Under the pieces are notes generated by a model that was not told the origin of the DNA, did no database searches, and worked only from the letters and a program-made list of their open reading frames with translations. From Patescibacteria group bacterium (GTDB taxonomy: Bacteria; Patescibacteriota; Minisyncoccia; RBG-13-40-8-A), in assembly GCA_018829905.1 (NCBI GenBank), contig JAHJST010000005.1:1-61213 (forward strand): a stretch of 61,213 nt of DNA, given 5' to 3'. This document shows, in pieces, positions 1-25,927 of this stretch; positions within the stretch are counted from its first letter, which is position 1; every line of letters begins with the position of its first letter. A program made the translations under genes and the position numbers.

Positions 1-339
1 AATTGATAAATAACCAGTATATTTATGATTGGGTAGTGTTTTTAATTTAAAAACATCTTTAATTAAATTAAAATATGATTTTTCTAATTTGCCCCATCTT
101 TGATTAAATTCTTTAACTTTTTTATCTAAAGTTTCTTTTTTATTCTCATAAGCCCTATTAACATATTTATTTATTTCTTTCTTTATATCCTTATCTTTTT
201 TATCTATTACCTTTTTCAGTTCTGGATTGGGATTCAAAACACATCCTGAAAAATCTAACCCACCTTGTTTTAAATCAAGAAAAATATTAATCATATCCTT
301 GTCAAGTTTTTTATTCAATTTAAAACTAACTTTTTTCAT
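1..339 (-). CDS. hypothetical protein, N-terminal 113 codons only (ORF continues past the left edge)
   Basis: ATG at 339-337 with an open frame to nt 1 (MKKVSFKLNKKLDKDMINIFLDLKQGGLDF...). Lys/Asp-rich, no motif I recognise. Absent from the supplied track because no stop lies in the window. Confidence 0.35.
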   Translation of the reverse strand, partial: MKKVSFKLNKKLDKDMINIFLDLKQGGLDFSGCVLNPNPELKKVIDKKDKDIKKEINKYVNRAYENKKETLDKKVKEFNQRWGKLEKSYFNLIKDVFKLKTLPNHKYTGYLSI

Positions 340-386
340 AAAATAATTTAAATTCTATTTTAATTATAATACTAAAAAAAGAAATA

Positions 387-419
387 AAATAGGGCCCTAT
401 TTAAAAATAGGGCCCTATT
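387..419 (-). terminator. two tandem GC-cored palindromes ending the peptide/rSAM/TyrRS-like operon
   Basis: AAATAGGGCCCTATTT (387-402) is a perfect 16-nt palindrome, repeated as AATAGGGCCCTATT (406-419). Flanks are T/A-rich. It lies 8 nt past the stop at 427 and could work in both directions. Confidence 0.5.
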
Positions 420-426
420 ATCTTTA

Positions 427-1206
427 TTACAAAATATTTTTTTCTATCTCTTTCGCAAAATGAATAACATTCTCTGGAATCTCACAAATATCTTTTTTAA
501 TCTTCTCTAGAGAATCAGAAAGATAAATACAATTGTTTTCACTATTTCCCATTTTTTTACCATCCTTCCCAAATAAATGAGGAATCAAAAGTCCAACTTC
601 TATGGGCCTACAATGATTCTCTTGTAGGCTGCGAGAAAGCAATACAATAAATTCTTGGTCTTCTCCTACAATCTCTATGTCTGTTTCGAATGCAATTGAA
701 TCATATCCTCCTATTAAAAAATATATTAAACGAGATAATGGCAAAATCTTTTCTGAGCTTAAATCCGTTTTTCTAGAAATATACCTCCATAAAATCCTAG
801 TATCACAATAAGAAGCTATCGATATCATTTTATCTAATCCAATTTTCTCTATCCATTCTGTTTGGAAGACAATTCTAACGGAATCCATGTCTAAAAATCT
901 ACCTATCTGCTTTTTAAAAGAACGCCTAATTTTTTTCTTGTCAATAATTATTCCATTTAAGCTGGCTGCAAAATCTGCTACTACAATATCGACAATCCCA
1001 CCAACATACTGTAATTGTTTGGCTATACAAAACAACAATCCATGTCCTATATGCAAACGGCAATCATTAGGAGTAATTCCGATTTTAACTCTAAATTTAT
1101 AACCACGCAATGCTTTGTTTAATAGGTCTACCAATTCAACTTTTTCAATAACTTTAACGTTCATCCAAAGTAAATACTGTAAAATATTGTCTATCTTTTG
1201 CTGCAT
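427..1206 (-). CDS. TyrRS-like class Ic aminoacyl-tRNA-synthetase catalytic-core paralog lacking the anticodon-binding domain (259 aa)
   Basis: HIGH motif is literally present (CRLHIGHG) and there is a KMSKS-like loop (GKKMGNS). Blocks VADFAASLN, YFLIGGYD and VGEDQEF align by eye to archaeal-type TyrRS. The protein ends 37 aa after the KMSKS loop. I place the start at ATG 1206 because GGAGGGG lies 5-6 nt upstream; the track start at 1215 is GTG. Confidence 0.7.
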   Translation of the reverse strand: MQQKIDNILQYLLWMNVKVIEKVELVDLLNKALRGYKFRVKIGITPNDCRLHIGHGLLFCIAKQLQYVGGIVDIVVADFAASLNGIIIDKKKIRRSFKKQIGRFLDMDSVRIVFQTEWIEKIGLDKMISIASYCDTRILWRYISRKTDLSSEKILPLSRLIYFLIGGYDSIAFETDIEIVGEDQEFIVLLSRSLQENHCRPIEVGLLIPHLFGKDGKKMGNSENNCIYLSDSLEKIKKDICEIPENVIHFAKEIEKNIL

Positions 1207-1211
1207 AATAA

Positions 1212-2624
1212 TCACCCCTCCTCAGATTCATATCTATAAAGATCATTAATCATCCATTTGAGAGTTTCCTTGGCGTGTATACAAAAAATATCATCTAAAG
1301 CAAGAATGCTACCATGTCGAAAATCAGCTCGAGCAGGACAACCGCCACCACAGATACCTAAAACAATACAATCTAAACACTGAGGCATTGTAAGCGGTGA
1401 ACGTTTTGCCCACCCAATAAAATCATTGTTTGTATAAGGTGAGAATTTTGAGTCAGGAATGGAAAAAAACTTCTTACTTAGAATATATGCTTGACACATT
1501 CCAACTTCGCCAGACGGAAGAAAAACAACTTGTCTTCCACAACCACCACAATCATAAGGATAAATTTTTTTATCCACAAAAGAATCTATCTTACGCATCA
1601 TTCTATTTTCATGTATTCCATTTTCTCTCAAAAATTCAAAACATCTAATCATTTCTTTTGTGGCAATCTCTGCATATTCAGAAGAAGAAATTATTCTCTC
1701 TGCACTATCCATTAATAGATTAAGTCCTATTCCTTTTGGTTCAAACTTCTCTATTAGCCATTGAACGTGCTTCAATAAATTTTTTACACTGCTTGGTGTT
1801 ATGGTTATAGACAAACTAAACTCAACACCAACAGATTTTAAAGTTTCACAACCTGTTCTTGTCTTCTTAAATGATCCATTGCCACCAGGAAAGCATCGAT
1901 ATTCATCATTGACTTTAGGCATACCATCTACAGATATACCAACTAAAACATTATAGTCTTTCATAAAAGAAGCAATGTTTCTATCAATCAATGTTCCGTT
2001 TGTAATAACACTTATCTCTAAATCTTCTGGTAATAACTTTTTCTTTTTCAGGATATGCATATGCTTAATCGCCAAACAGAATGCTTCTTTGTTCAATAAT
2101 GGCTCTCCACCATAAAGAATAACTGTTTTATTTTTTGAAACAGATTCAGAAGTCCATTTAGCAAAAAAATTAAGCGATTGTCTTACAACACCAGAAGACA
2201 TAAAAGAAAAATTATATTTCGTATCAATATCTTGTCTAACAAAACAGTATCGACATCTTAAATTACAAGCATCTGTCAAAACCAAATATGCCATATTGAT
2301 TACTGGATTTCTTAAATAGTTTTTTTGATAACCATTAAGCTCTTTGCCTTCATTACACGAAAGTGGTACAAGCATTTTAAACTCTATTAGTCTTTCTACA
2401 AGGGAGAAGAAAGATTTTTTCTCAGAAAAATCCAATTCTTTTTGCATAATTATATAACTAATATTTTTTCCGGTTTTAAACTCAGAAACTAATTCGAGCG
2501 CTCTCGCAGAAAGAAAAACTGTTTCAATCGTAAGAGAATGGAATAAAGCTATATATTCTTTCTCTTTTAAAATGTGTAAAAATCTAGAAAATCTTAAGGG
2601 CAGGTTAATAATTTCTTTAATCAT
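1212..2624 (-). CDS. radical SAM / SPASM-domain peptide-modifying enzyme (470 aa)
   Basis: CX3CX2C triad in LTDACNLRCRYCF. The C-terminus has auxiliary-cluster cysteines (CGGCGRQ...MCQA) and the SPASM signature CLDCIVLGICGGGC (CX2CX5CX3C). An approx 110-aa N-terminal extension precedes the rSAM core. GGAG lies 8 nt upstream of the ATG. Confidence 0.85.
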   Translation of the reverse strand: MIKEIINLPLRFSRFLHILKEKEYIALFHSLTIETVFLSARALELVSEFKTGKNISYIIMQKELDFSEKKSFFSLVERLIEFKMLVPLSCNEGKELNGYQKNYLRNPVINMAYLVLTDACNLRCRYCFVRQDIDTKYNFSFMSSGVVRQSLNFFAKWTSESVSKNKTVILYGGEPLLNKEAFCLAIKHMHILKKKKLLPEDLEISVITNGTLIDRNIASFMKDYNVLVGISVDGMPKVNDEYRCFPGGNGSFKKTRTGCETLKSVGVEFSLSITITPSSVKNLLKHVQWLIEKFEPKGIGLNLLMDSAERIISSSEYAEIATKEMIRCFEFLRENGIHENRMMRKIDSFVDKKIYPYDCGGCGRQVVFLPSGEVGMCQAYILSKKFFSIPDSKFSPYTNNDFIGWAKRSPLTMPQCLDCIVLGICGGGCPARADFRHGSILALDDIFCIHAKETLKWMINDLYRYESEEG

Positions 2625-2638
2625 CAGTATATCTCCTT

Positions 2639-2670
2639 AAAAAAATTTGGGGGGATTAAGTCCCCCCAGT
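2639..2670 (-). terminator. intrinsic terminator/attenuator hairpin between the peptide gene and the rSAM gene
   Basis: Minus strand reads GGGGGG-ACTTAAT-CCCCCC followed by AAATTTTTTT, which runs straight into the rSAM ribosome-binding site (AAGGAG). Confidence 0.55.
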
Positions 2671-2687
2671 CCACGAAAATTCGAATC

Positions 2688-2852
2688 TCAATAATAGTCA
2701 TCACACTTGCAAGGACAGGGGCTCCTACAAACCCTACTATCACCACCGCTTAAAAGCTCCTGTTGAGAAGGAATATTTCCTCGAATTTTCTCTCTGTTCT
2801 TCTTGGATGATGTTGACCATTCAATCACTAATTTGGTATCTTTTTTCTTCAT
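2688..2852 (-). CDS. 54-aa Cys-rich candidate precursor peptide (not in the supplied ORF track)
   Basis: Hand translation: MKKKDTKLVIEWSTSSKKNREKIRGNIPSQQELLSGGDSRVCRSPCPCKCDDYY, stop TGA. GGAG lies 6 nt upstream of the ATG. It is the first gene after a consensus-like promoter and sits directly upstream of the rSAM/SPASM gene. Confidence 0.65.
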   Translation of the reverse strand: MKKKDTKLVIEWSTSSKKNREKIRGNIPSQQELLSGGDSRVCRSPCPCKCDDYY

Positions 2853-2990
2853 TTTTTACTCCATTATCACCTATCTTATTGTATAAATTTGTCTAAATAG
2901 ACACAAAGATAGAATCTATATCAATATTCACTGAAAATCAGCAAATTAAATTATAAAAGAACACTAAAAGAACGTTTAACACACATTATT

Positions 2991-3019
2991 AATATACTGC
3001 TTTTAAAATCCCTTGTCAA
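2991..3019 (-). promoter_or_regulatory. sigma70-type promoter of the peptide operon
   Basis: Minus strand TTGACA (3019-3014), N17, TATATT (2996-2991). This predicts an approx 130-nt 5' UTR before the peptide ATG. Confidence 0.55.
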
Positions 3020-3022
3020 GTT

Positions 3023-5287
3023 TTAATCAACTATATACAAAGAATTAATAAATTTATCATATTCTTCTTTAAAATTAGGATCTATTTGAACTGCTTTATC
3101 AGCAGCTTGTCTTGCTTTATCAAATTGCCCCATATGAGCATAAGCAGCTGCTAATGAAGCATACATTTGAGCGCTTTCTGGTTCTTGTTGCACACCTAAT
3201 TCATATAATCTAGCAACCATATCATATCTCTGTGCTTTTTCAAATATTTTAACCATTCTTAATAATTCAGTTGTATTTGTTTCAAAATCCTTCCATCCTA
3301 ATTCTAATGCCTTATTAAGCGCTTCAAGCGCTTCTTCGTTTTTATCAGCAGCACTAGCAGAAACAGCTGTAAACCACCAAGACAATGAAACTTCTGGATT
3401 TAATTCTGCAGCTGTTTTAAAACTATTATATGATTCTTCATATTCTTTTATTGACATTTGTGCTTGGCCTAATTCATACCAAATCCTAGGATTTCTTTTA
3501 TTTAATTCTAATGCCTTATTAATAGAAGCTAATGCTTGATTAGCTGCTTCTTGCCCATCTTTTTCAATTAATAAAATATACATTCTTCCAACGTATAGAT
3601 ATGGAACAGTGTCTAAAGGAAATCTTTCAATGTTTTTACTTACTATTTTAATTGAAAAATATAAAAGGCTTGGATCAAAATCTCCTTGTTTTTGTTTCAT
3701 TGTTTCTGCAAGCTGAATTGCAAATGTAGCTAGTTTGTGCCTTATTTCATAAGCTCCTTCTGGAACTGGATTACATATAAATTCATTATTTTCTCTTTTA
3801 CAATTTAAAGCTTCTTGGTATTTATCAACTGCTTTTTGAGCATTACCTGCTCTTCCTGCTAATATTGCTCTTGTTGTACTAAAATTAGCTTGAGATGATC
3901 TAATATTTGTTTGAAAAATTAAAATTACAGCTAGGATTAATAAAATAACAATTAAGAATGTTGATGGATATTTTTTTTCTCTTAATGGCTCTATCTTTTT
4001 ATTATTTGTTTTTAAATAATAAACATATGCTAAAACCATAAAGAATAAAAAGTAATTTACAAATGTATCGAAAATAAAAAGATTTTGTATAAAGTATGCA
4101 ATAATCATTGCTGAAAAAACACCAAAAGTAATTTTACCAATTCTTTTAGATTTGAATTTTTTAATCAAAACAATAAACATTGATACAAATATTGATAAAT
4201 AGCTTAATAAACCAACAGCACCCATTGTTGATAAAGCATTTAAAGGAACATTATGAGCTCTGTCCCAAATAGTTTCTGATCCAACATGAGTAAAATGACG
4301 AGCATCAAAATGCTTCATATGAAGAACTGAAAAATTCTCAGGACCCCAACCAAAGATTGGTCTTTCTTTCCATCCTTCAATTGCGCTTGTCCATGACCAA
4401 ATTCTAGTCTGAAGAGTATCTGAATCTAAAGAAAGGCTTGTTATTCTGTCTAGCCAACTAATGTTTTTTACCCATGTACTATTTTTACCAATAAAGGCAA
4501 AAGTAAAAAAAAGAACAAAAATTAAAATTGCAATAATTAAAGATATTTTTAATTTTTTATTCTTTGAAGCAAAAACAAAAAATAGAGCTAAAAGAATTAT
4601 TGTTATAAAAAAAGACAATATTGCTCCCCTAACAGCTGTCATTAATAAAACTGGAATTCCTAAAATTAAAACAATAGAATAAAATCCTTTTTCTCTAATA
4701 TCTGTTTGTTTTTTTAATAAAAACCAAAGAGCTAAATAAAGTATAAAAAGAAGGTAACCAGCAAATAACGCAGGATTACCTATTGTTCCAATTACCCTTT
4801 CTCCGTGTTGCCAACCAACAAAAAAACTACCAAGTCTTAATCTTTGTCCATAAGCAAATAAAATTGAAAGAAAACCAACAAAAGTTGTAATTTTTAATAT
4901 TTTATTCCAGTCTAATTTTATTCTAATAATACTAATCAGAATTACAAAATATACCCAAAAGTGTATAAAAGAAAAAATACCACCCATTCTTTCTATGCTT
5001 CCCCACATACTACTAAAAAAATTAACTCCAATTAATCCAGTAAAAATATATAAACCAGTATAAGCAGTAAAACTAATTAAAATTAAATTCCATTTTGGCC
5101 TATATCTTTTATCAATAATTATTAAAAGAATATAGAAAACAGCCATTAATTCAACCAATGATCTAAATAAAATCATTTTACCAAAATGAAATGGTGATAA
5201 ATGTTGAGAAAAAACTACTAATGGCAAAAACAAAGAAACATATACTCCCCAACGAAGTATTTTATTCAAATTTTCAGAAGTTATCAT
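3023..5287 (-). CDS. O-antigen ligase/polymerase-like (Wzy_C) polytopic membrane protein with C-terminal TPR repeats (754 aa)
   Basis: More than 10 TM helices. Motifs GTIGNPALFAGYL and RPIFGWGPENF...H. The C-terminal approx 250 aa are TPR-like (ALELNKRNPRIWYELGQAQ, YASLAAAYAHMGQFDKARQAADKAVQIDPNF). Start set at ATG 5287 (MITSENL...); the longer track ORF reads through a GC-rich RNA element. Confidence 0.8.
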   Translation of the reverse strand: MITSENLNKILRWGVYVSLFLPLVVFSQHLSPFHFGKMILFRSLVELMAVFYILLIIIDKRYRPKWNLILISFTAYTGLYIFTGLIGVNFFSSMWGSIERMGGIFSFIHFWVYFVILISIIRIKLDWNKILKITTFVGFLSILFAYGQRLRLGSFFVGWQHGERVIGTIGNPALFAGYLLFILYLALWFLLKKQTDIREKGFYSIVLILGIPVLLMTAVRGAILSFFITIILLALFFVFASKNKKLKISLIIAILIFVLFFTFAFIGKNSTWVKNISWLDRITSLSLDSDTLQTRIWSWTSAIEGWKERPIFGWGPENFSVLHMKHFDARHFTHVGSETIWDRAHNVPLNALSTMGAVGLLSYLSIFVSMFIVLIKKFKSKRIGKITFGVFSAMIIAYFIQNLFIFDTFVNYFLFFMVLAYVYYLKTNNKKIEPLREKKYPSTFLIVILLILAVILIFQTNIRSSQANFSTTRAILAGRAGNAQKAVDKYQEALNCKRENNEFICNPVPEGAYEIRHKLATFAIQLAETMKQKQGDFDPSLLYFSIKIVSKNIERFPLDTVPYLYVGRMYILLIEKDGQEAANQALASINKALELNKRNPRIWYELGQAQMSIKEYEESYNSFKTAAELNPEVSLSWWFTAVSASAADKNEEALEALNKALELGWKDFETNTTELLRMVKIFEKAQRYDMVARLYELGVQQEPESAQMYASLAAAYAHMGQFDKARQAADKAVQIDPNFKEEYDKFINSLYIVD

Positions 5288-11913: not shown

Positions 11914-13332
11914 ATGAAAGTTCTTCTAATTTATCCACATTATAGTAAAACAACAAATACATTTTTTAGATTTTTAAAAAATAAAATACCACCATTGGGG
12001 CTTTTATACATTGGCTCTGCGCTCAAAGAAAAAAGCCATGAAGTAAAAATAATTGATGCCGAAGAAAAAAAAATAGATTTAGAATCGTTAGGCAAATTAA
12101 CAAAAAATTATAATCCTCAAATTATAGGAATTTCAACTACAACTCCGGTTTTTAAAAGAGCACGAGAAACGGCAACATATCTAAAAAAAATCCTTCCAAA
12201 TGTACCTATTATTTTTGGTGGACCACATTTGGCATCGTTCCCAAAAATAAGTTTAGAATTTAAAGAGATAGACTATGGAATAATTGGGGAAGGCGAAATC
12301 ACTATTTGTGAATTAGTTGATGCAATAGAAAAAAAACAAGATCCGGGAAAAATTAAAGGAATAGTATTCCGTAAAAACAATGAAATAATTCAAACTGAAT
12401 CTAGAGAAATGATTCAAGATCTTAATAAAATATCTTTGCCAGCATGGAGTTTAATCGATATTAGAAAATACCAAGATATTATGTCAAAAAGAGATGCATT
12501 TGCTACGATGATTTCAAGTAGAGGTTGTCCATATAACTGTTTCTGGTGCGATCCAGAAGGAAGATTCGGAAAAAAATTTAGAGCAAGATCAGCAGACAAT
12601 ATGATCAAAGAAATTGACTTGCTTTACAATAAATACGGAATAAGAGAAATACTCTTTTACGACGATACTTTTACGGTAGACAGACAAAGAGTAATAGATT
12701 TTTGCAATACGATAATAAAACAAAAATTCGATTTAATTTGGGAATGTCGCACAAGAGTAAACCTAGTAGACGAAAAATTAATAAAATTAATGGCGAAAGC
12801 AGGATGCTATAGAATTAGATTTGGAATAGAGTCTGGCAATGAAAAAATATTAAAATTTATCAGAAAAGGAATTACCAAGGAACAAGCCAGAAATGCTATA
12901 GGTTGGTGCAAAAAATATAAAATCGAAATTTTTACTTATTTTATGCTAGGATTACCAACCGAAACGGAAAAAACAATGAAAGAAACCATAAAATTTGCAA
13001 TAGAACTAAATCCCGACTATACCACATTTAGTCCAACCATAGCCTTTAATAGAGGAAATGATCTTTTTAAATGGGCCGCCGAAAAAGGATTTATAGAAAA
13101 AGATTATTGGGAAAGATTTGTAAGAGGAGAAAATATAAGTCCATACCCACAACTCAAAACAGATAAATTAAAAGAAGATACTGTTCGTTCTTATTCTAAA
13201 ATGGCTTATAGAAAATTTTATTTACGACCATCTTTTGTCTTAAAAAAACTATCAAATTATCGTAATATAAAAAATCTAAAAAAATATTTATTAATTGGAA
13301 TAGCTTTTTTGTTTGGCAAAATAGAAGCATAA
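11914..13332 (+). CDS. B12-binding-domain radical SAM protein (paralog 1)
   Basis: N-terminal KVLLIYPHY...PPLGLLYIGSAL...IIFGGPH module, and the rSAM triad SSRGCPYNCFWC. Confidence 0.8.
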   Translation: MKVLLIYPHYSKTTNTFFRFLKNKIPPLGLLYIGSALKEKSHEVKIIDAEEKKIDLESLGKLTKNYNPQIIGISTTTPVFKRARETATYLKKILPNVPIIFGGPHLASFPKISLEFKEIDYGIIGEGEITICELVDAIEKKQDPGKIKGIVFRKNNEIIQTESREMIQDLNKISLPAWSLIDIRKYQDIMSKRDAFATMISSRGCPYNCFWCDPEGRFGKKFRARSADNMIKEIDLLYNKYGIREILFYDDTFTVDRQRVIDFCNTIIKQKFDLIWECRTRVNLVDEKLIKLMAKAGCYRIRFGIESGNEKILKFIRKGITKEQARNAIGWCKKYKIEIFTYFMLGLPTETEKTMKETIKFAIELNPDYTTFSPTIAFNRGNDLFKWAAEKGFIEKDYWERFVRGENISPYPQLKTDKLKEDTVRSYSKMAYRKFYLRPSFVLKKLSNYRNIKNLKKYLLIGIAFLFGKIEA

Positions 13333-13336
13333 AAAT

Positions 13337-14749
13337 ATGAAAATTTATTTATTAAATCCATCTTTTATAAAAAATTATGTTAGATCTTCAAGATGTACGT
13401 GGATACCTGTTGCAGGAAGTAATTGGTATCCAATTTTTTTAGCCTATGCCACTGGATGCTTAGAAAAAGATGGTTATAAAGTAAAACTAGTTGATGCATT
13501 GGTCGATGGAATCCCACATGAAAAAATTATAAAAGATATAAAAAATTTCTCTCCTAAAATCACAGTTATTTATACTTCAATAGACAGCATGGAAAACGAA
13601 ATTAAATTATCTGAAATGATTAAAAAAGAAATTAATACATTCATTGTTTTTGTCGGACCATGGTGTGCAATAGATCCAGAAGGAATATTAAAAAAATCTA
13701 AATCAATTGATGGCGTAATTCGAAGAGAATTTGAACTTCCATTACTTAATTTAACAAAAACAATTGAAAGAAATGCCGATCTAAGCGAAGTAAAAGAACT
13801 AACATGGCAAAAAAATAATAAAATAATTAAAAATCCAGACGGAGAATTTATAAATGAAAAAGGATTAAATGAATTACCATTTGTTACAAATATTTATAAA
13901 AAATACTTAAAAATGAAAAATTACCGCCAAACCAGTCTGAAATATCCTTTTGTTGATATGTTTACCGCACGTGGATGTGCCTGGGGTAAATGCACCTTTT
14001 GCCTATGGCCAAACACAATTCACAAAGGAGCACATTATCGTACAAGAACAATAGAAAACATCATAGAAGAATTGAAATCAATAAAAAAAGAATTACCAGA
14101 AATTAAAGAAATATTTTTTCAAGATGATATGTTGCCCAGAATTAGAATTCGTCAAATTGCAGAAGCAATTATAAAAAACAATCTAAAAATTACATGGTCT
14201 GGATACGCTAAGGCCGACCTAGACCTAGAAACAATGAAATTAGCAAAAAAATCTGGATGTAAATTTTTACATATCGGCTACGAATCAGGAATTCAAGAAA
14301 TACTCAATAATATCAACAAGGGAGAAATAGTTTCCGGAATGGAAGAATTTACAAAAAATGCCAAAAAATCAAGAATTAATATTCATGGAGATTTTATCTT
14401 TGGTTTGCCCGGTGAAACAATTGAAACCATTAAAAAAACAATAAAATGGGCTAAAAAATTAAATATTTCTGACTATCAATTCGTAGTGCCCCAACCACAC
14501 AAATCAACTCCTTTTTATAATTGGTTAAAATCAAATGATTATTTAACAAAAGATGAAAAAATTAATTATCCAAATTTATCTATAAAGGATCTCGAATACT
14601 GGAGATTTAGGGCCTATAAAAAAATTTATTTTAGCTTTTCGTATCTATCCAAAAGATTGTGGGAAGCTATTAAAAACCCGGCTGAAGGGACTAGATTACT
14701 AAAGGTTGCTTGGCGTGGACTACCCAAATTATTTAAAAAACCAAAATGA
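13337..14749 (+). CDS. B12-binding-domain radical SAM protein (paralog 2) with CX4CX2C spacing
   Basis: Same overall architecture as paralog 1. The cluster motif reads TARGCAWGKCTFC. Confidence 0.7.
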   Translation: MKIYLLNPSFIKNYVRSSRCTWIPVAGSNWYPIFLAYATGCLEKDGYKVKLVDALVDGIPHEKIIKDIKNFSPKITVIYTSIDSMENEIKLSEMIKKEINTFIVFVGPWCAIDPEGILKKSKSIDGVIRREFELPLLNLTKTIERNADLSEVKELTWQKNNKIIKNPDGEFINEKGLNELPFVTNIYKKYLKMKNYRQTSLKYPFVDMFTARGCAWGKCTFCLWPNTIHKGAHYRTRTIENIIEELKSIKKELPEIKEIFFQDDMLPRIRIRQIAEAIIKNNLKITWSGYAKADLDLETMKLAKKSGCKFLHIGYESGIQEILNNINKGEIVSGMEEFTKNAKKSRINIHGDFIFGLPGETIETIKKTIKWAKKLNISDYQFVVPQPHKSTPFYNWLKSNDYLTKDEKINYPNLSIKDLEYWRFRAYKKIYFSFSYLSKRLWEAIKNPAEGTRLLKVAWRGLPKLFKKPK

Positions 14750-20641: not shown

Positions 20642-21605
20642 AAAAATTTTAAAAAATAAATGGTTTTTTCGATTGATTGGAATAGTAATCTTTATTTTTA
20701 TTTTAAATAAAATCAATTTAAAAGAAACGCTTTCTTTTTTCCTTAATCTTAATCTATCTTATCTAGTCTTAGCAATACTTATTATGGTTTTTGCCTCAAC
20801 CATAAAACCCTACCGCTGGCAATATATTCTAAAAACAATGAATATCAATTATTCATTTTGGCAAGTTTTCAGGTTATATTTTATTGGACTTTTTATGGGC
20901 ATAGTCACGCCAGGAAGACTTGGCGAACTTGGAAAAATTATTTATCTTAAAAAAAATAACCATTCTTTCGAAAGGTCTTTAGCAAGCATCATGATTGATC
21001 GTTTAGCCGATATATTCTATCTAATTATCTCTGGATTTATTGGTCTTTTTTTATTTTTTTATTTCTTTAAAAATCTAATAATTATAGGTTTTAGTATAAT
21101 TACAATTGGAATAATTTTATTTATAATAATTATAAAAATTAAGAAAGCTAAAATTATTCTTAAAAGATTGATTTTCATTCTTGTCCCCAAAAAATATAAA
21201 CAAAAAATTGAAAAATCATTTTCTGAATTTATTGAGAACATAAAACTATATAAATTCAAAAACTATTTTAAGATATTTATTTTAACCACTTTATCTTGGC
21301 TAGTATCCTATGTAGCTGTTTATTTTTTAACCAAAAGCATAGGAATGATGAATGTATCTTTTATTTATTTAACAGTCTCAATAACGATTGTTAGTCTTGT
21401 AACGCTTCTACCAATTTCCATATCCGGCTTGGGCACGCGCGAGGCTACTTTTCTTATGCTTTTTATTCCACTTGGATTTACTAATGAACAAATTATAAGT
21501 TTATCTTTATTAATTTTTATTACTAACTTTATAATTATTCCCATTATTGGTCTCTCGTGTTGGCTAATAACGCCAATAACAACAAATATAAAAAATCGTG
21601 TCTAA
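20634..21605 (+). CDS. UPF0104 / lysyl-PG-synthase-TM-like (flippase-type) membrane protein
   Basis: About 8 TM helices and a TPGRLGELGKIIYLKK loop typical of this family. Confidence 0.55.
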   Translation: MIKKILKNKWFFRLIGIVIFIFILNKINLKETLSFFLNLNLSYLVLAILIMVFASTIKPYRWQYILKTMNINYSFWQVFRLYFIGLFMGIVTPGRLGELGKIIYLKKNNHSFERSLASIMIDRLADIFYLIISGFIGLFLFFYFFKNLIIIGFSIITIGIILFIIIIKIKKAKIILKRLIFILVPKKYKQKIEKSFSEFIENIKLYKFKNYFKIFILTTLSWLVSYVAVYFLTKSIGMMNVSFIYLTVSITIVSLVTLLPISISGLGTREATFLMLFIPLGFTNEQIISLSLLIFITNFIIIPIIGLSCWLITPITTNIKNRV

Positions 21606-23064
21606 AATTTTACTAATCAACCCTCAATTTAATATCCCTCGTGCAAATTATGATGGAAGCCTTTCTATGGGCATTTTTTGTCTTGCCACTTATTTAGACC
21701 AAAAAGGAATTGAAGTAAAAATTATCGATTGTGCCAGACAACACCAATATCTAGACTTAATTAAAAAAGAACTACCAAATATAAAGTTTGTAGGAATATC
21801 TGTAATGACCACCCAATTACAATCTGCTCTTAATATCTCGAAATTAATAAAAAAATATAATAAAAAAATCATAATCATTTGGGGAGGATTTCATCCAACT
21901 CTTTTTCCAAAAACCACAATAGCTCATCCACTAATAGATGTTGCCGTAATTGGCGAAGGAGAAGAAACGCTTTGGGAAATTATTAATAAAAAAGGCAAAA
22001 ACCTCGAATCCATAAAAGGCATTGCATTTAAGAAAAAAAATAAAACAATAATAACCCCAGAACGACAATTACTAAAAATGGAGGACTTACCCACTCCAAG
22101 GTGGAAATTAATTCCACTGGATATTGTTAACAACTTATCAAAAATTCCCATACACACAAGTCGAGGCTGTCCACATAATTGCACATTCTGCGTAAATGCG
22201 ATTACAAAAAATCGATGGCGAGCCAGATCACCAGAACAAGTAATCAATGACATCAAAAGTGCTATATCTGGGCCATGCAAAGAGAAAAAACATATAGTCT
22301 TTTGGGATGAAAATTTCTTTGTTGATAAAAACAGGGCAAAAATTATAACGCAAGAAATAATAAACAATAATATAAATATCTACTGGAGTGCCAGCATTAG
22401 GAGCAGTTATTTTAATAATAAATTTATAAACAATAACTTTCTTGAATTAATGAAGAAATCCGGTTGTAACCTATTATCAATCGGAGCTGAATCTGGCTCG
22501 ATTAAAATACTTGAAAAAATAAAAAAAAACACAACCCCAGAAGAAATAATTTATTCAGCCAAGCAATGTATTAAATATAATATTGATCCAATTTATTCTT
22601 TCATGGCTGGTCTGCCAGGAGAAACCTGGCAAGATATTAAAAAAACTCTCTGTTTAATTAATGATTTAACAAAAATTAATCAAAGAGTAAAAATCATCGG
22701 ACCACAAACCTTTAGGCCATATCCTGGTTCACCACTATTTGAAGAATGTGTTTCAATGGGATTGCACCTTCCATTATCTCTTGAGGAATGGAGTAAATCA
22801 ATGAGTGGAGAATTAAACTATTTAGACTCTCGCCAGTTTCCTTGGTTAAAAAAACCAAATACAATCGAATCTCTAGATGTTATAGTGCGTCTTGGTGCTA
22901 ATCCACTAAAATATGCCTTGGGATTAGAAGTTAAAGCAAATAAAATTTTAAAATTTTTATTTATTTTTCTTTGCAGGGCCAGATGGAAACTTAAATTTTT
23001 TCATTGGCCAATAGAATATATTCTAGCAAAAAAATTTATCTCAAAATCTACTCCAGCAGATTAA
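21598..23064 (+). CDS. B12-binding-domain radical SAM protein (paralog 3)
   Basis: GTG start overlapping the upstream gene, TSRGCPHNCTFC, and an N-terminal KILLINPQ...IIIWGGFHP module. Confidence 0.8.
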   Translation: MSKILLINPQFNIPRANYDGSLSMGIFCLATYLDQKGIEVKIIDCARQHQYLDLIKKELPNIKFVGISVMTTQLQSALNISKLIKKYNKKIIIIWGGFHPTLFPKTTIAHPLIDVAVIGEGEETLWEIINKKGKNLESIKGIAFKKKNKTIITPERQLLKMEDLPTPRWKLIPLDIVNNLSKIPIHTSRGCPHNCTFCVNAITKNRWRARSPEQVINDIKSAISGPCKEKKHIVFWDENFFVDKNRAKIITQEIINNNINIYWSASIRSSYFNNKFINNNFLELMKKSGCNLLSIGAESGSIKILEKIKKNTTPEEIIYSAKQCIKYNIDPIYSFMAGLPGETWQDIKKTLCLINDLTKINQRVKIIGPQTFRPYPGSPLFEECVSMGLHLPLSLEEWSKSMSGELNYLDSRQFPWLKKPNTIESLDVIVRLGANPLKYALGLEVKANKILKFLFIFLCRARWKLKFFHWPIEYILAKKFISKSTPAD

Positions 23065-23079
23065 TTCTTGGTTATTTTT

Positions 23080-24678
23080 TTAATCAATTATTTTTATCTC
23101 AGTTGCACTTAAAATCTCTTTGCTTAATAATTCGTCAAAACCAGCTATGTGAGTAACACCAAATTTATTAAATGCCCATTGCAATTTATTCTCTCCTAAT
23201 AATCTTTTAATCGTTTTTGGGTCAAAATAAATATAATTATAATTTGTGTAATAATTAAGAAAAAGATAATCTCGCGGAACCACAATTATGTCTTCAGTAT
23301 TAATACTTGAAAAATTTTCTTTAATCATGTTCATTAAAATTATTTTTTCCTGAATCCCAGAATAAAGATAATTCTCGTGAAACATCCACTTATTTGACTG
23401 TATAAGGTGACCAAAGAAAACAAGTAAAATCGCCCCAGCCAACAAAAGGTAATTTCTTCTGCTCTGAATTATTTGTCGTAACCAATCTATAACCCAAAAA
23501 ACTCCCAAAGATATCAATAAAACTAACGGAAATCTTATTTCTAAAAAATGATCTTCATTGCTTGTCCTTAGACTAATCAGAACCAAAAAAAGAAAAACTA
23601 TCCACAAAATAGACAGATTGAAAAGCTTCTTATTTCTTTTGTGGAGAAAAATGGAGCCCAGCACCAAAAACAAAATAACAAACAGACCGCCCATTAATGG
23701 TTGACGAAAAAAGCCAGTAATATAATATTTAAAAGAAATAAAATGCATTTTAATCCTTGCTTTTAAACTATGTATATACCCATAACCAATTAAGGCGTTA
23801 ATTTCATCTCCCTCTGCTGTATCAATTTTTTCTTTAATAAATTCATCTTTTTCAAAATGATAAGTATATGGATCGGTAAAAAGATGTCCATCCCAAGCCA
23901 TTTCTGTTTTGGTGATATAGGAATTTTCTATGCCAGAAAAATAGTCTTGAAACATAAACCCTCCCCACAGTAAAACAACAGGCAAAATAAATACAAAAAT
24001 CCTTTTTGTGATCAACCACAGTAATTGCTTAATTGGTCTCCATTCTTTTTTATAAATAAAATTAGAATAAAAATCATAAAATAAAAATGGAATAAACGAA
24101 ATTAAAAACGCATTTCTGGCTAAAGATGCAAGACCAAAAAACAAACCACTAAATAATAATCTCCAAATGTTTGGTTTCTCTTTCCAGAGATAAATCGATA
24201 TACCGACTACAAAAAACAACATTGCCCATTCATAAAAGCCAAACCAATTTGATCCAGACAAAATAAATGGTAGAAAAATATCAACACCCGCAAATATTAA
24301 GGCTATACGAATATTAAATAATTTTAAAATCAATAAAAATAATAGAACAGTAGTAATTCCGTAAATAACCAAAGAAACATATAGTGGAATTTGTGGATTA
24401 AATCCAAAAACATTGAATATTTTACTATATAGAATCGGTGTTAGTTTATTACTACTACTATAGTTAATCCCTCGTTCTTTTATTAGTTCTGAAGACAATG
24501 CGATATCCATTTTATCTACAATCATATATTCTCCAGTTAAGCTTAGGTTTCTCGCCAAAATTAAATTAGTGGCATCAATGTTCCATGAAAATCCCTTATG
24601 ATAAATCGGCCAATAACGAACTAAAATAGAGATAATAAAAATTAAAAATATAATTAAAACTATATATTGTTTTTTCAT
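23080..24678 (-). CDS. large polytopic membrane protein, GT-C-like (ArnT/PMT-type) glycosyltransferase candidate
   Basis: About 530 aa with more than 10 TM helices and a C-terminal soluble domain, in a glycan-locus context. No catalytic motif verified. Start placed at ATG 24678 (MKKQYIV...). Confidence 0.45.
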   Translation of the reverse strand: MKKQYIVLIIFLIFIISILVRYWPIYHKGFSWNIDATNLILARNLSLTGEYMIVDKMDIALSSELIKERGINYSSSNKLTPILYSKIFNVFGFNPQIPLYVSLVIYGITTVLLFLLILKLFNIRIALIFAGVDIFLPFILSGSNWFGFYEWAMLFFVVGISIYLWKEKPNIWRLLFSGLFFGLASLARNAFLISFIPFLFYDFYSNFIYKKEWRPIKQLLWLITKRIFVFILPVVLLWGGFMFQDYFSGIENSYITKTEMAWDGHLFTDPYTYHFEKDEFIKEKIDTAEGDEINALIGYGYIHSLKARIKMHFISFKYYITGFFRQPLMGGLFVILFLVLGSIFLHKRNKKLFNLSILWIVFLFLVLISLRTSNEDHFLEIRFPLVLLISLGVFWVIDWLRQIIQSRRNYLLLAGAILLVFFGHLIQSNKWMFHENYLYSGIQEKIILMNMIKENFSSINTEDIIVVPRDYLFLNYYTNYNYIYFDPKTIKRLLGENKLQWAFNKFGVTHIAGFDELLSKEILSATEIKIID

Positions 24679-25927
24679 GATAAAAAAAATAAAATCAATA
24701 ATAATAAAACTCCTTATAATATCCCAAAAAAATACAGGAACTGACAATATCTACATTGCCAAGCATGGTTCTTATTTGATGATTGGGAACATTATTAGCA
24801 TGGCCACTGCATTTCTTTTGTCTATCGCTTTTGCAAATATTATTTCCCAAGAAACATATGGAGAATATAGATACATATTGTCAATTATGACAATATTAGC
24901 CATTACCTCACTTGAAGGAATTAATGTAGCCATTATTCAGGGAGTAAGCAAAAAATCTGAAGGCGTTTTTTTAAATGGACTTAAAACAAAATTAAAATAT
25001 AGTTTTTTGGGAAGTATTTGTTCTGTTTTTATTGCCATTTATTTCTGGTTTCAAGGAAATATTGAATTTACTATATCCTTATTAATTATAGCCTTTTTTC
25101 TTCCACTATTCAAAGGTGGAGAAACTTATCAGTACTTCCTAGACGGCAAAAAATTATTTAACAAAAGAGTTGCCTATACTACTATAATTCAAATTTTATC
25201 TACCATTTCAATCATAATAACCTTACTTATAACCAAGAATCTCATTATATTAATCTTGATCTACTTTCTTTCTTATTCTTTATTAAGAATGTTTTTCCTT
25301 TTTTGGACAATTAAAAAAAACAAACCAAATAAAATTAATGACAAAAAAATGATTGCCTATGGAAAACATTTAAGTTTAATGGGAATTATAAATCTTATCA
25401 CTCAGCAAATTGATAATGTTTTTTTATTCTACTTTGTTGGCCCAATACAACTAGCTATTTATTCTTTCGCCGCTTTCCCAATACAGCACATTAGAGGACC
25501 TCTTAAAATTATTCAGGAATTAGCCATACCCAAGCTTTCCGTCAGATCAGAAAATGATATTAAAAAAACATTACCAAAAAAACTTTTGAAAATGACCATA
25601 CTAATTGTTTTCGGAATTATAATATATATTATTCTCGCTCCATACTTTTTTAAAATATTCTATCCTCAGTATATTGAATCAATACCCTATTCAAGACTAT
25701 TGGCTTTTACTCTTTTAGCCTTTCCAATGTCAATGATGGTTCTCTCTCTTCAGGCAAAAATGAAAACAAAAAAACTTTATAAAATAAATATATTAATTCC
25801 AATTATTAAAATAGTTCTTTTTGCTATTTTAATTCCTCTTTATGGAATTTTGGGTGTTATAATTGCTATATTAATATCACAAATTTTTTATTTTTTTATT
25901 GCTTATTTTTTCTTTAAAAAAATGTAA
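24677..25927 (+). CDS. Wzx-like oligosaccharide flippase (MOP superfamily)
   Basis: 416 aa with about 12 TM helices, and the N-terminal pattern typical of polysaccharide biosynthesis flippases. Confidence 0.6.
   Translation: MIKKIKSIIIKLLIISQKNTGTDNIYIAKHGSYLMIGNIISMATAFLLSIAFANIISQETYGEYRYILSIMTILAITSLEGINVAIIQGVSKKSEGVFLNGLKTKLKYSFLGSICSVFIAIYFWFQGNIEFTISLLIIAFFLPLFKGGETYQYFLDGKKLFNKRVAYTTIIQILSTISIIITLLITKNLIILILIYFLSYSLLRMFFLFWTIKKNKPNKINDKKMIAYGKHLSLMGIINLITQQIDNVFLFYFVGPIQLAIYSFAAFPIQHIRGPLKIIQELAIPKLSVRSENDIKKTLPKKLLKMTILIVFGIIIYIILAPYFFKIFYPQYIESIPYSRLLAFTLLAFPMSMMVLSLQAKMKTKKLYKINILIPIIKIVLFAILIPLYGILGVIIAILISQIFYFFIAYFFFKKM

Follow-up and report, generated by a model that had tools for sequence, protein, structure and literature searches.

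Why should the catalytic core of a tyrosyl-tRNA synthetase (TyrRS) lie in an operon with a small Cys-rich peptide and a radical SAM enzyme? The question is raised by a minus-strand unit from an uncultured Patescibacteria bacterium, located at one end of the 61,213-nucleotide stretch of DNA analysed here (the window), in which a promoter is followed by a 54-aa precursor gene, a maturase gene, a TyrRS-like paralog and a terminator. The sequence features listed in the original prediction were all found where it had placed them, and its view of the locus as an RiPP-type operon is supported, with a peptide that is under purifying selection and a radical SAM protein that falls among peptide maturases. 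The features, in order along the window, are:

1..339, minus strand: HExxH protein, the first 113 of 235 codons, cut by the window edge (full gene in L002 and L003)
388..419, bidirectional: intrinsic terminator with a 14-bp stem formed by two copies of AATAGGGCCCTATT (terminator scan)
427..1206, minus strand: TyrRS catalytic-core paralog of 259 aa, without anticodon-binding and S4 domains (PF00579)
1212..2624, minus strand: peptide maturase of 470 aa with RRE-like, radical SAM and SPASM domains (PF04055, TIGR04136, fold, invariant Cys)
2638..2668, minus strand: intra-operon hairpin and T-run (GGGGGGACTTAATCCCCCC AAATTTTTTT) in the precursor-maturase gap (terminator scan)
2688..2852, minus strand: precursor gene of 54 aa, a Lys-rich leader up to Gly-Gly and then the core DSRVCRSPCPCKCDDYY (ORF, Shine-Dalgarno sequence)
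2853..2990, minus strand: 5' untranslated leader of ~138 nt with two conserved hairpins (alignment with L012)
2991..3019, minus strand: sigma-70-type promoter TTGACA-N17-TATATT, matching at 11 of 12 positions

The peptide ORF, read from 2852 to 2688, encodes MKKKDTKLVIEWSTSSKKNREKIRGNIPSQQELLSGGDSRVCRSPCPCKCDDYY and has, as predicted, a GGAG Shine-Dalgarno sequence 6 nt 5' of its ATG; on a twin ENA contig it is annotated as a gene, and it matches none of the NCBIfam models. A diverged locus, L012, whose maturase is 63% identical to that of the window, repeats the same peptide core, inter-gene hairpin and gene order, which goes beyond chance. The peptide encoded there ends ...KGKGGSCISPCPCKCDDYY with the core SPCPCKCDDYY retained, and the differences in the core (8 of the 11 final codons) are without exception synonymous, a pattern indicating that the peptide gene is real and under purifying selection. 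Precursor genes adjoin the maturase gene in the window, L012, L011, L176 and L180, and related precursors ending SCNC(A/S)CSCTDGY are found 5' of maturases 46-47% identical. Across the wider family the precursors carry a C-terminal CxCxC…D-x-Y, and the registers Cys(-7)-X3-Asp(-3) and Cys(-5)-X3-Tyr(-1) are common to all those seen. The C-terminal Tyr is also kept in precursors from loci without a TyrRS-like gene, so that this residue belongs first of all to the maturase system and did not arise for the paralog's sake. Specific to the paralog-bearing clade, judging from two full precursors, are Tyr(-2) and Lys(-6), the latter being the only Lys in the core.

That the predicted promoter drives a strongly expressed precursor gene is strongly supported. 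Promoter-like sites are no commoner here than chance (17 found, 17.0 expected in shuffled sequence), so the weight of this one, which the original prediction had correctly located at 3019..2991, comes from its position and from its conservation in L003, where both hexamers are kept and the sequence 5' of the -35 element is unrelated. The alignment with L012 is better for the 5' leader than for the leader-peptide codons, and Rfam has no match to it; 4 of the 14 predicted pairs in its hairpins show compensatory changes, which makes a weak case for their conservation as there are only two distinct sequences. Terminators exceed chance (7 found, 1.1 expected), and the element originally described as a twin palindromic terminator is a strong 14-bp-stem hairpin that closes the unit at 388..419 and is also present in L002. 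A further hairpin (2668..2648), in the gap between the peptide and maturase genes, was absent from the features first listed. With its T-run it forms the intra-operon element at 2638..2668, kept in L012 as GGGGGGATTTTATCCCCCC TAATTTTTTT. The element is probably an attenuator, which would limit read-through from the precursor gene into the enzyme genes.

The maturase matches PF04055 (63 bits) through the motif CNLRCRYC (C120-X3-C124-X2-C127), which is invariant in 68 homologues. The predicted SPASM signature is present as C416-x2-C419-x5-C425-x3-C429, and with C359, C377 and C448 these residues, likewise invariant in the 68 homologues, make up a full 7-Cys SPASM domain of the kind that carries two auxiliary clusters; the 25 strongest of 79 NCBIfam hits contain no separate SPASM HMM. 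Residues 1-116 have no match in Pfam even at E<=10, but a leader-binding domain had been proposed at the N-terminus, and the high-confidence AF2 model (pLDDT 95) contains an RRE-like fold there, with four short strands (residues 10-38) and helices 40-51, 55-62 and 66-81 within residues 10-81. Foldseek aligns the model along its full length with TigE (8VPO, E 1e-22) and with CteB (5WGG, E 3e-21, TM 0.73-0.77, 466 columns), giving 466-480 columns to CteB/TigE against ~380 to the RRE-less anSME. There is thus strong support for a radical SAM/SPASM peptide maturase with a probable leader-binding (RRE) domain, whose nearest kin are the thioether-forming enzymes FibroRumin, PapB and CteB.

The best NCBIfam match is TIGR04136 (282.1 bits, model positions 1-455 of 458), which falls short of the equivalog cut-off of 400 bits, making this FibroRumin model the nearest family rather than one to which the enzyme belongs; the comparison is by family model, and we found no paper on the family in the literature. 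NCBI names some Patescibacteria relatives (P0128) FibroRumin system radical SAM peptide maturase. The PapB model NF047865 comes second at 142.9 bits (cut-off 340). An anaerobic sulfatase maturase (TIGR03942) was considered and rejected, as the score of 109.7 bits is below the cut-off of 349 and there is no cognate sulfatase among 29 neighbouring ORFs scanned, leaving the enzyme among peptide maturases.

Several known systems resemble this pair. The maturases of PapB/freyrasin and CteB/SCIFF also combine radical SAM and SPASM with a Cys-rich core encoded beside the enzyme, and their RRE has a putative counterpart here, but the window maturase scores far below their models (143 against 340 and 77 against 425), its core has CxCxC and a C-terminal D-x-Y instead of the repeated CX3D or the SCIFF motif, and neither is known to have a TyrRS-like partner. 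PapB joins Cys to the carbon alpha to a carboxylate, the C-terminal carboxylate included (PMC12373016); it needs a carboxylate next to the attacked carbon, and the window core has a Cys-X3-Asp register. The mycofactocin (MftA/MftC) and PQQ (PqqA/PqqE) pathways share a short precursor, a critical Tyr at or near its C-terminus and a radical SAM/SPASM enzyme, RRE-dependent in those pathways. Neither MftA nor PqqA is like the Cys-rich core of the window, the 25 top-ranked of 79 NCBIfam hits include no MftC or PqqE model, and mft or pqq accessory genes are absent from the neighbouring genes scanned; both identities were rejected. The claim that peptide and maturase form a new family does not hold, since they belong to a large existing one, chemically uncharacterised, with 1079 homologues at E<=1e-20 and TIGR04136 as its nearest model. 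What is new is limited to the TyrRS-like add-on, and the Patescibacteria clade to which this is restricted is very small.

The order peptide, radical SAM enzyme, TyrRS-like protein, as originally proposed, was seen again in diverged loci. In the window the TyrRS-like gene starts 5 nt past the maturase stop, with GAGGAGGGG in the final maturase codons, bearing out the predicted translational coupling; in L012 the start of the TyrRS-like gene (MDNKIKFIFK) overlaps the maturase stop, in L009 the maturase C-terminus overlaps the TyrRS-like gene, and L008 probably has the two adjoining as well. The cassette occupies a strain-variable position. Only five sequence clusters of the paralog were found among ~15 billion proteins, and all those with visible flanks adjoin this maturase; the best 80 loci retained when 185,579 species-representative genomes were scanned do not include it. 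The relative P0149 (L173) seems to be truncated or to have decayed. We regard it as strongly supported that the gene, annotated by NCBI as hypothetical, is a dedicated non-housekeeping TyrRS paralog co-inherited with the maturase.

The paralog scores 101 bits against PF00579, its only Pfam match, and 99.4 bits against TIGR00234, below the curated cut-off of 113.8. It aligns with residues ~25-265 of solved TyrRS structures and ends ~35 residues past the KMSKS loop, while canonical TyrRS hits (380-420 aa) carry PF22421 and PF01479 where the paralogs have PF00579 only. When the paralogs were aligned with 147 canonical TyrRS, in which Gly-Asp-Pro and Gln173 are at least 90% conserved, the two halves of the active site differed in their fate. 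HIGH/HLGH (HxGH) is present in every paralog covering that region; the KMSKS loop reads KMGNS, KMSKS or KMGKS, i.e. K-M-(G/S)-x-S; and Lys82, Asp-Gln, Tyr169 and Asp176-Ser are kept. Asp78 of the Gly-Asp-Pro motif is gone from all four paralogs covering it, replaced by Ile, Val, Tyr or Gly in a region that reads Asn/Arg/Gln-Gly-Ile/Val/Tyr, and Gln173 (LQxYD) has become Gly or Ala in five of five. Following the classical studies of Bacillus stearothermophilus TyrRS, we take Asp78, Tyr169 and Gln173 to be the alpha-ammonium binders and Asp176 to contact the phenol OH. The absence of both tRNA-binding domains, the below-cut-off score and the remodelled amino-acid site mean that the paralog cannot be an ordinary TyrRS, as the original prediction had suspected. 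Its active site appears, from these substitutions, to have been rebuilt for the last Tyr of the peptide rather than for free tyrosine. Between the two mechanistic guesses first put forward, the changes in the active site speak for an activated terminal Tyr rather than for ligation of a free amino acid. The window copy reads KMGNS, having lost the second Lys of KMSKS like P0004, and Arg86 is changed in three of the four relatives covering it, so catalysis may be impaired.

A further gene was absent from the earlier description of the locus and is probably a recurrent operon neighbour. It encodes an HExxH protein and comes after the TyrRS-like gene both in the window and in L010, with its first codons visible in L008. 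H142, E143, H146 and E175 are invariant in 36 homologues, and the AF2 model (pLDDT 92) has no significant fold match in the PDB, nor does the protein match Pfam or NCBIfam. A distant homologue lies beside the maturase in L176 and L180, while homologues at 73-77% identity also occur in loci without a maturase. It is a possible fourth component, e.g. a leader peptidase.

It is quite possible, although we hold it tentatively, that the paralog adenylates the C-terminal Tyr carboxylate of the precursor for ligation or cyclisation. With rather more reserve we propose that a class I aaRS catalytic domain may have been turned into an RiPP tailoring enzyme, which would recognise the C-terminal Tyr and adenylate the peptide's carboxylate for ligation or macrocyclisation. 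In such a pathway the maturase would cross-link the four core Cys to carbons beside carboxylates, the C-terminal Tyr would sit in the old tyrosine pocket of the paralog, and the peptide chain would exit via the space freed by loss of the two alpha-ammonium binders. ATP would be spent on adenylating the C-terminal carboxylate, and the acyl-adenylate captured by an amine, Lys(-6) being the simplest candidate, giving a C-terminal macrolactam or amide, and the HExxH neighbour may cut the leader off after Gly-Gly. Were the maturase to treat the C-terminal Tyr as MftC does in mycofactocin, by decarboxylation or cross-linking, perhaps no carboxylate would be left to adenylate. To our knowledge, MccB and other ThiF/E1-like RiPP adenylyltransferases are the only well-known enzymes that spend ATP on adenylating a ribosomal peptide at its C-terminal carboxylate. 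The fold of MccB is E1/ThiF, unrelated to the class I aaRS Rossmann fold of the paralog, and its product is a stable N-P linked peptidyl-nucleotide. In the literature searched we found no precedent for a class I aaRS fold that adenylates a peptide C-terminus, and no RiPP pathway with a class I aaRS core.

The retained HIGH, KMSKS-like and Asp-Gln motifs and the Tyr-OH-binding Asp would also suit an enzyme that activates a free acid and joins it to the peptide without tRNA, be it tyrosine or a Tyr-like acid without an alpha-amine (4-hydroxyphenyl-lactate or -pyruvate), with Lys(-6), the new core N-terminus or a Ser as acceptor. MshC and the amino acid:carrier-protein ligases are truncated or diverged aaRS paralogs that act in this manner (PMC9437257), as does the MetRS-like enzyme of hydrazine pathways (PMC13149037). 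Together with GluQRS/YadB, these enzymes reuse an aaRS core (that of MshC being CysRS-like) outside translation, often without an anticodon-binding domain, but none is TyrRS-derived and all activate a free amino acid, whereas the paralog has lost its alpha-ammonium site; a 2022 review of aaRS lists no paralog function for TyrRS (PMC9437257). We consider a free acid unlikely, since loss of both alpha-ammonium binders in all members argues against free L-Tyr, Patescibacteria metabolism is minimal, and neither the operon nor the neighbouring genes scanned hold a gene for synthesis of an unusual aromatic acid. A non-catalytic role, as a Tyr-terminus-binding subunit or chaperone handing the core to the maturase, or as an immunity or decoy protein against a TyrRS-targeting product, strikes us as distinctly unlikely. 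The missing second Lys of KMSKS, the variable Arg86 and the tight translational coupling with the maturase, which suggests a complex, would fit such a role, and where an antibiotic cluster contains an additional aaRS copy, this is commonly a resistance gene. Yet selection for ATP binding is suggested by the persistence of HxGH, Lys82, Asp-Gln and the first Lys of KMSKS at identities of 44-63%, and a domain unable to bind tRNA or free Tyr could not stand in for an inhibited TyrRS.

Action on tRNA, whether as GluQRS-like tRNA modification or as CDPS-like use of Tyr-tRNA on the peptide, is very improbable. Both GluQRS and cyclodipeptide synthases (CDPS) are truncated class I cores that still use tRNA. 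The CDPS (AlbC etc.) are similar to TyrRS, being stand-alone TyrRS/TrpRS-like Rossmann domains without a tRNA-binding domain that yield peptide natural products (PMC9437257), but they have lost the ATP motifs HIGH and KMSKS and use aminoacyl-tRNAs. The paralog keeps HIGH and KMSKS-like signatures and matches PF00579 and no CDPS model of Pfam, so that CDPS identity was rejected; its genetic link is to a peptide and a maturase, and the window holds no tRNA gene. Scarcely credible, finally, is a minimal or split working TyrRS with its tRNA-binding part encoded elsewhere, lying beside the RiPP pair by chance. The 61-kb window has no full-length TyrRS or other TyrRS gene and reduced proteins are frequent in Patescibacteria, but a canonical TyrRS of 390-406 aa with S4 domains is normal in this group; the loss of Asp78 and Gln173, the TIGR00234 score, a worldwide count of five clusters, each seen with the maturase where flanks are visible, and the variable position of the cassette between strains also speak against a housekeeping enzyme.

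For the adenylation of the peptide's C-terminal Tyr, the active-site pattern, in which the ATP motifs and the residue holding the Tyr side chain persist and every member has lost both alpha-amine binders, offers a concrete hypothesis, with the terminal Tyr of the peptide as substrate. That aaRS paralogs give rise to new ATP-dependent ligases is known; TyrRS-derived ones have not been described (PMC9437257). If the proposal is true, this would be the first non-translational role for a TyrRS paralog, evolved in the CPR/Patescibacteria lineage, and a new enzyme class or route for activating peptide C-termini, useful for peptide ligation and cyclisation tools in the way that MccB and PapB have been engineered. 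It would also mean that Patescibacteria, with their reduced genomes, devote resources to elaborate peptide chemistry, and the operon provides an entry to the large uncharacterised family of CxCxC...D-x-Y peptides and FibroRumin-like maturases.

The three genes lie together on the minus strand, and all the operon features of the original prediction (reading frames, motifs, Shine-Dalgarno sequences and promoter) are present in a minus-strand reading of positions 1..3600, an ORF listing and a consensus scan. With the neighbouring gene and signals, in window coordinates, these are:

3019..2991, minus strand: promoter TTGACA-N17-TATATT, 11/12 positions in the consensus scan
2852..2688, minus strand: precursor ORF of 54 aa, reading MKKKDTKLVIEWSTSSKKNREKIRGNIPSQQELLSGG/DSRVCRSPCPCKCDDYY, with GGAG 6 nt 5' of its ATG
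2638-2668, minus strand: G6/C6 hairpin followed by T7, between the precursor and maturase genes
2624..1212, minus strand: maturase ORF of 470 aa, with CNLRCRYC and CX2CX5CX3C
1206..427, minus strand: TyrRS-like ORF of 259 aa (the paralog), its ATG 5 nt past the preceding stop, behind GAGGAGGGG
388..419: bidirectional terminator with a 14-bp stem, from the consensus scan
339..1, minus strand: gene of an HExxH protein, cut by the window start; 235 aa in the contigs L002 (2644-3351) and L003

Promoter-like sites show no overall enrichment in the window (17 found by the consensus scan against 17.0 expected), and terminator-like sites are more numerous than expected (7 against 1.1). The G6/C6 hairpin, placed at 2668..2648 by the consensus scan and absent from the original prediction, is also kept as a G6-loop-C6 hairpin and T-run in L012 (about 325-355), a contig carrying a related operon, and is probably an attenuator giving a high peptide-to-enzyme ratio. 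Between the window and L012, the 5' untranslated leader of the operon (window 2853-2990, minus strand; L012 20-147) is more conserved than the codons of the leader peptide, and 4 compensatory base-pair changes fall in the two hairpins into which it folds. It matches no Rfam family at the gathering score or at E<=5, and could, from comparison of these two distinct sequences, be a regulatory RNA.

As had been proposed, the radical SAM enzyme belongs among the peptide maturases. It matches PF04055 in Pfam, and among its 79 NCBIfam matches TIGR04136 ("FibroRumin system radical SAM peptide maturase") comes first with a full-length score of 282 bits, below the 400-bit cut-off, followed by the PapB model at 143 bits. 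Identity as an anaerobic sulfatase maturase (anSME) can be rejected, given a score of 110 bits against a cut-off of 349 and no sulfatase among the 29 neighbouring ORFs scanned. Falling below the curated cut-offs of TIGR04136, PapB, SCIFF and anSME, the enzyme is therefore a neighbour of those families rather than a member. Its own family is large, with 1079 members at E<=1e-20, many of them patescibacterial, and the three radical-SAM and seven SPASM cysteines are invariant across 68 homologues. In the AlphaFold2 model (pLDDT 95), residues 10-81 form short strands and then three helices before the barrel. Alignments by Foldseek span the full chain for TigE (8VPO, E 1e-22) and the thioether synthase CteB (5WGG, E 3e-21, 466 columns), but only ~380 columns for anSME, which has no RRE. 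The model fold and these full-chain alignments support an RRE-type leader-binding domain at the N-terminus, a domain that no sequence model detects. Searched separately, the N-terminus and the SPASM region give no Pfam match.

Sequence comparison indicates that the precursor is a real gene under selection. The maturase of L012 is 63% identical to that of the window and is preceded by MKKRPIVKSRISWEASSAKKRGQIRGRISNQTKGKGG/SCISPCPCKCDDYY; 8 of the 11 codons that end the gene (SPCPCKCDDYY) are different there, every change being synonymous, so that the predicted Cys-rich peptide recurs elsewhere with an identical core. Peptides of the same kind also lie 5' of more distant maturases (46-47% identity), ending in ...YGAKSCNCACSCTDGY in L011 (a Bacteroidota MAG), ...YGSKSCNCSCSCTDGY in the locus L180 and ...YGSQSCRCSCSCTDGY in the locus L176. 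With residues numbered back from the last one, all precursors compared have Cys(-9), Cys(-7), Cys(-5), Asp(-3) and Tyr(-1) in common, and therefore share Cys(-7)-X3-Asp(-3) and Cys(-5)-X3-Tyr(-1) registers; the window holds a single precursor of this kind. Lys(-6) and Tyr(-2) are restricted to the paralog-bearing clade, represented by two precursors (n=2), whereas Ser(-6) and Gly(-2) take their place in the other clades. The peptides have no family match in Pfam or NCBIfam. The precursor-like ORF 5' of the L176 maturase (3826-3915, …KKFQGAYGSQSCRCSCSCTDGY) has a very short leader and no ATG, GTG or TTG at the normal distance, so that it either has an unusual start or is a precursor in decay.

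The paralog belongs to an extremely small family. It scores 101 bits against PF00579 and 99.4 bits against the NCBIfam bacterial TyrRS model, below the 113.8 cut-off. It aligns to residues ~25-265 of solved TyrRS structures and ends ~35 residues past the KMSKS loop, and so lacks the anticodon-binding and S4 domains carried by all canonical TyrRS matches. A word-indexed search of 5.8 billion clusters returned only P0002 (53% identity), P0003 (44%) and P0004 (63%, a fragment), to which a profile search run exhaustively over 1.84 billion representatives contributed P0149 alone, the next matches being canonical or double-length TyrRS. P0149, probably either an assembly chimera or a copy in decay, comes from a 783-bp contig (L173); it is missing the first ~45 residues and diverges past the KMSKS loop. 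Scans of genome and metagenome contigs with the paralog alignment add weakly to the evidence for rarity: their patterns are degenerate and shared with ordinary TyrRS, and the matches listed were canonical TyrRS only (<=34% identity over comparable lengths), with no new paralog loci among them. Two high-scoring proteins, P0150 (952 aa) and P0152 (834 aa), were rejected as members, being double-length TyrRS pseudo-dimers. One half of each is canonical; the other, which scores high with the paralog profile, is degenerate and has lost the GDP motif, an independent loss in pseudo-dimeric TyrRS.

The paralog is co-inherited with the maturase, its gene lying 3' of the maturase gene in every locus with visible flanks. 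The complete loci of the paralog-bearing clade number two. The order of peptide, radical SAM enzyme and TyrRS-like gene anticipated by the original prediction recurs in L012, where the starting codons MDNKIKFIFK overlap the maturase stop. In the locus L009 the paralog gene overlaps the 3' end of the maturase gene, and in L008 a short reading frame stops just before it.

An alignment of five paralogs with 147 canonical TyrRS separates what the active site has kept from what it has lost. HxGH, the Lys82-equivalent lysine, Tyr169, Asp176-Ser, Gly-x-Asp-Gln and K-M-(G/S)-x-S (KMGNS in the window copy) are kept. Asp78 of the Gly-Asp-Pro motif (B. stearothermophilus numbering), present in at least 90% of canonical TyrRS, is gone from all four paralogs covering the region, where the site reads N-G-I-I, R-G-I-K, R-G-V-K or Q-G-Y-T, with 12 residues deleted just after it. 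Gln173, likewise conserved at >=90%, is Gly or Ala in all five; Pro170 is replaced by Phe or Leu, and Thr stands in for the GxDPT aspartate in each of the three that cover the position. In the classical TyrRS literature, Asp78, Tyr169 and Gln173 bind the alpha-ammonium group of tyrosine and Asp176 its phenol hydroxyl. Together with these roles, the pattern suggests that ATP chemistry and recognition of the tyrosine side chain are kept and that recognition of the alpha-amine, whose binders are replaced by small or hydrophobic residues, is lost. This is the pattern expected for a substrate tyrosine with its amine in a peptide bond, here the C-terminal Tyr of the precursor.

The operon layout, the conserved peptide, the class of the maturase, the joint inheritance of paralog and maturase, and the paralog's missing domains and altered residues are all observed; the chemistry is inferred. 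We propose a two-enzyme maturation. By analogy with PapB, which accepts even a C-terminal carboxylate (PMC12373016), the maturase would form thioethers from the four cysteines to carbons beside carboxylates. The paralog would adenylate the C-terminal Tyr carboxylate of the precursor, and an amine would capture the adenylate; Lys(-6) would be the simplest candidate, since Lys(-6) and Tyr(-2) are confined to the precursors of the paralog-bearing clade (n=2). This specific role for the paralog is put forward tentatively, as a possibility rather than a probability.

Several other roles were weighed. Ligation of a free acid by the paralog would suit the kept ATP motifs and phenol-binding Asp, but the loss of both alpha-ammonium binders speaks against free tyrosine, and we consider it unlikely. 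A non-catalytic part in binding or immunity, which would suit the lost second Lys of the KMSKS loop in the window copy and sits poorly with the kept HxGH motif, seems somewhat less likely still. A tRNA-dependent role is very improbable; the anticodon-binding and S4 domains are missing, and the 61-kb window contains no tRNA gene. It matches no Rfam family either. Nor did the window yield a second TyrRS, as tblastn with canonical TyrRS matched only the paralog, and no TyrRS tagged KKA23 or KJ684 occurs among members of the clusters sampled; the paralog fails three of the four defining TyrRS features, however, and a housekeeping or split TyrRS is the least probable reading of all. A resistance copy of TyrRS was rejected, there being no tRNA-binding domains and no free-Tyr site; the retained ATP motifs led to the rejection of a cyclodipeptide synthase (CDPS) as well.

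The HExxH protein is a possible leader peptidase that recurs near the maturase family, though not always. Both here and in the locus L010 its gene lies 3' of the TyrRS-like gene, as do its first codons in L008; a distant homologue (hhalign 94%) adjoins the maturase in L176 and L180, and L180 has a closer one two genes away. The HExxH...E signature is invariant among homologues of the 235-aa protein, whose family is Patescibacteria-specific. A strong terminator separates the gene from the operon, and obligatory membership of the cluster was rejected, since homologues at 73-77% identity occur in loci without a maturase. The protein has no Pfam or NCBIfam match, and its confident AlphaFold2 model (pLDDT 92) gave only non-significant Foldseek matches in the PDB (E>1), all to zinc peptidases, so no peptidase family is assigned.

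Identical copies of the proteins are on record from metagenome-assembled genomes of Patescibacteria (CPR), where the TyrRS-like protein is tagged KKA23_00380 and KJ684_01330 and named "hypothetical protein" by NCBI. An identical cassette is present on seven contigs. In L003 both promoter hexamers and all downstream sequence are the same as in the window, but the sequence 5' of the -35 hexamer is unrelated (L003 1-200 vs window 3020-3100), and several assemblies end just 5' of the cassette, which therefore lies at a strain-variable junction; in the window this joins the cassette to an O-antigen-ligase/TPR gene. The remainder is mostly a cell-surface glycan locus, with glycosyltransferases, methyltransferases, a flippase-like gene and a sugar transferase, and includes:

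11914-13332, 13337-14749 and 21598-23064, plus strand: three B12-binding radical SAM genes inside the glycan locus
49857-53510, 48409-49734 and 23080-24747, minus strand: large ORFs of 1217, 441 and 555 aa, no Pfam match at E<=1e-5

The B12-binding radical SAM set, unconnected with the operon, represents decoration chemistry that is unusual on the surface of a CPR cell. The large ORFs have as neighbours a 1031-aa beta-helix/LTD protein and an ECF-type sigma factor, the latter with a DUF5667 partner.

In its way of working the peptide-maturase pair resembles ranthipeptide and sactipeptide systems. For the proposed C-terminal adenylation the nearest functional analogy is MccB, which adenylates a peptide C-terminus with an E1 fold; among truncated aaRS paralogs the nearest are MshC, GluQRS, aa:CP ligases and the MetRS-like hydrazine enzymes. 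A 2022 review gives no paralog function for TyrRS (PMC9437257). In a literature that mostly excluded subscription journals, no class I aaRS paralog turned up in any RiPP cluster, nor did any work on FibroRumin or TIGR04136, so that absence is not proof. The claim of a new RiPP operon thus holds in part: the RiPP system itself is of a known, if unstudied, kind, and what is new is the recruitment of a TyrRS core whose amino-acid site is remodelled, which yields a specific, testable mechanistic prediction.
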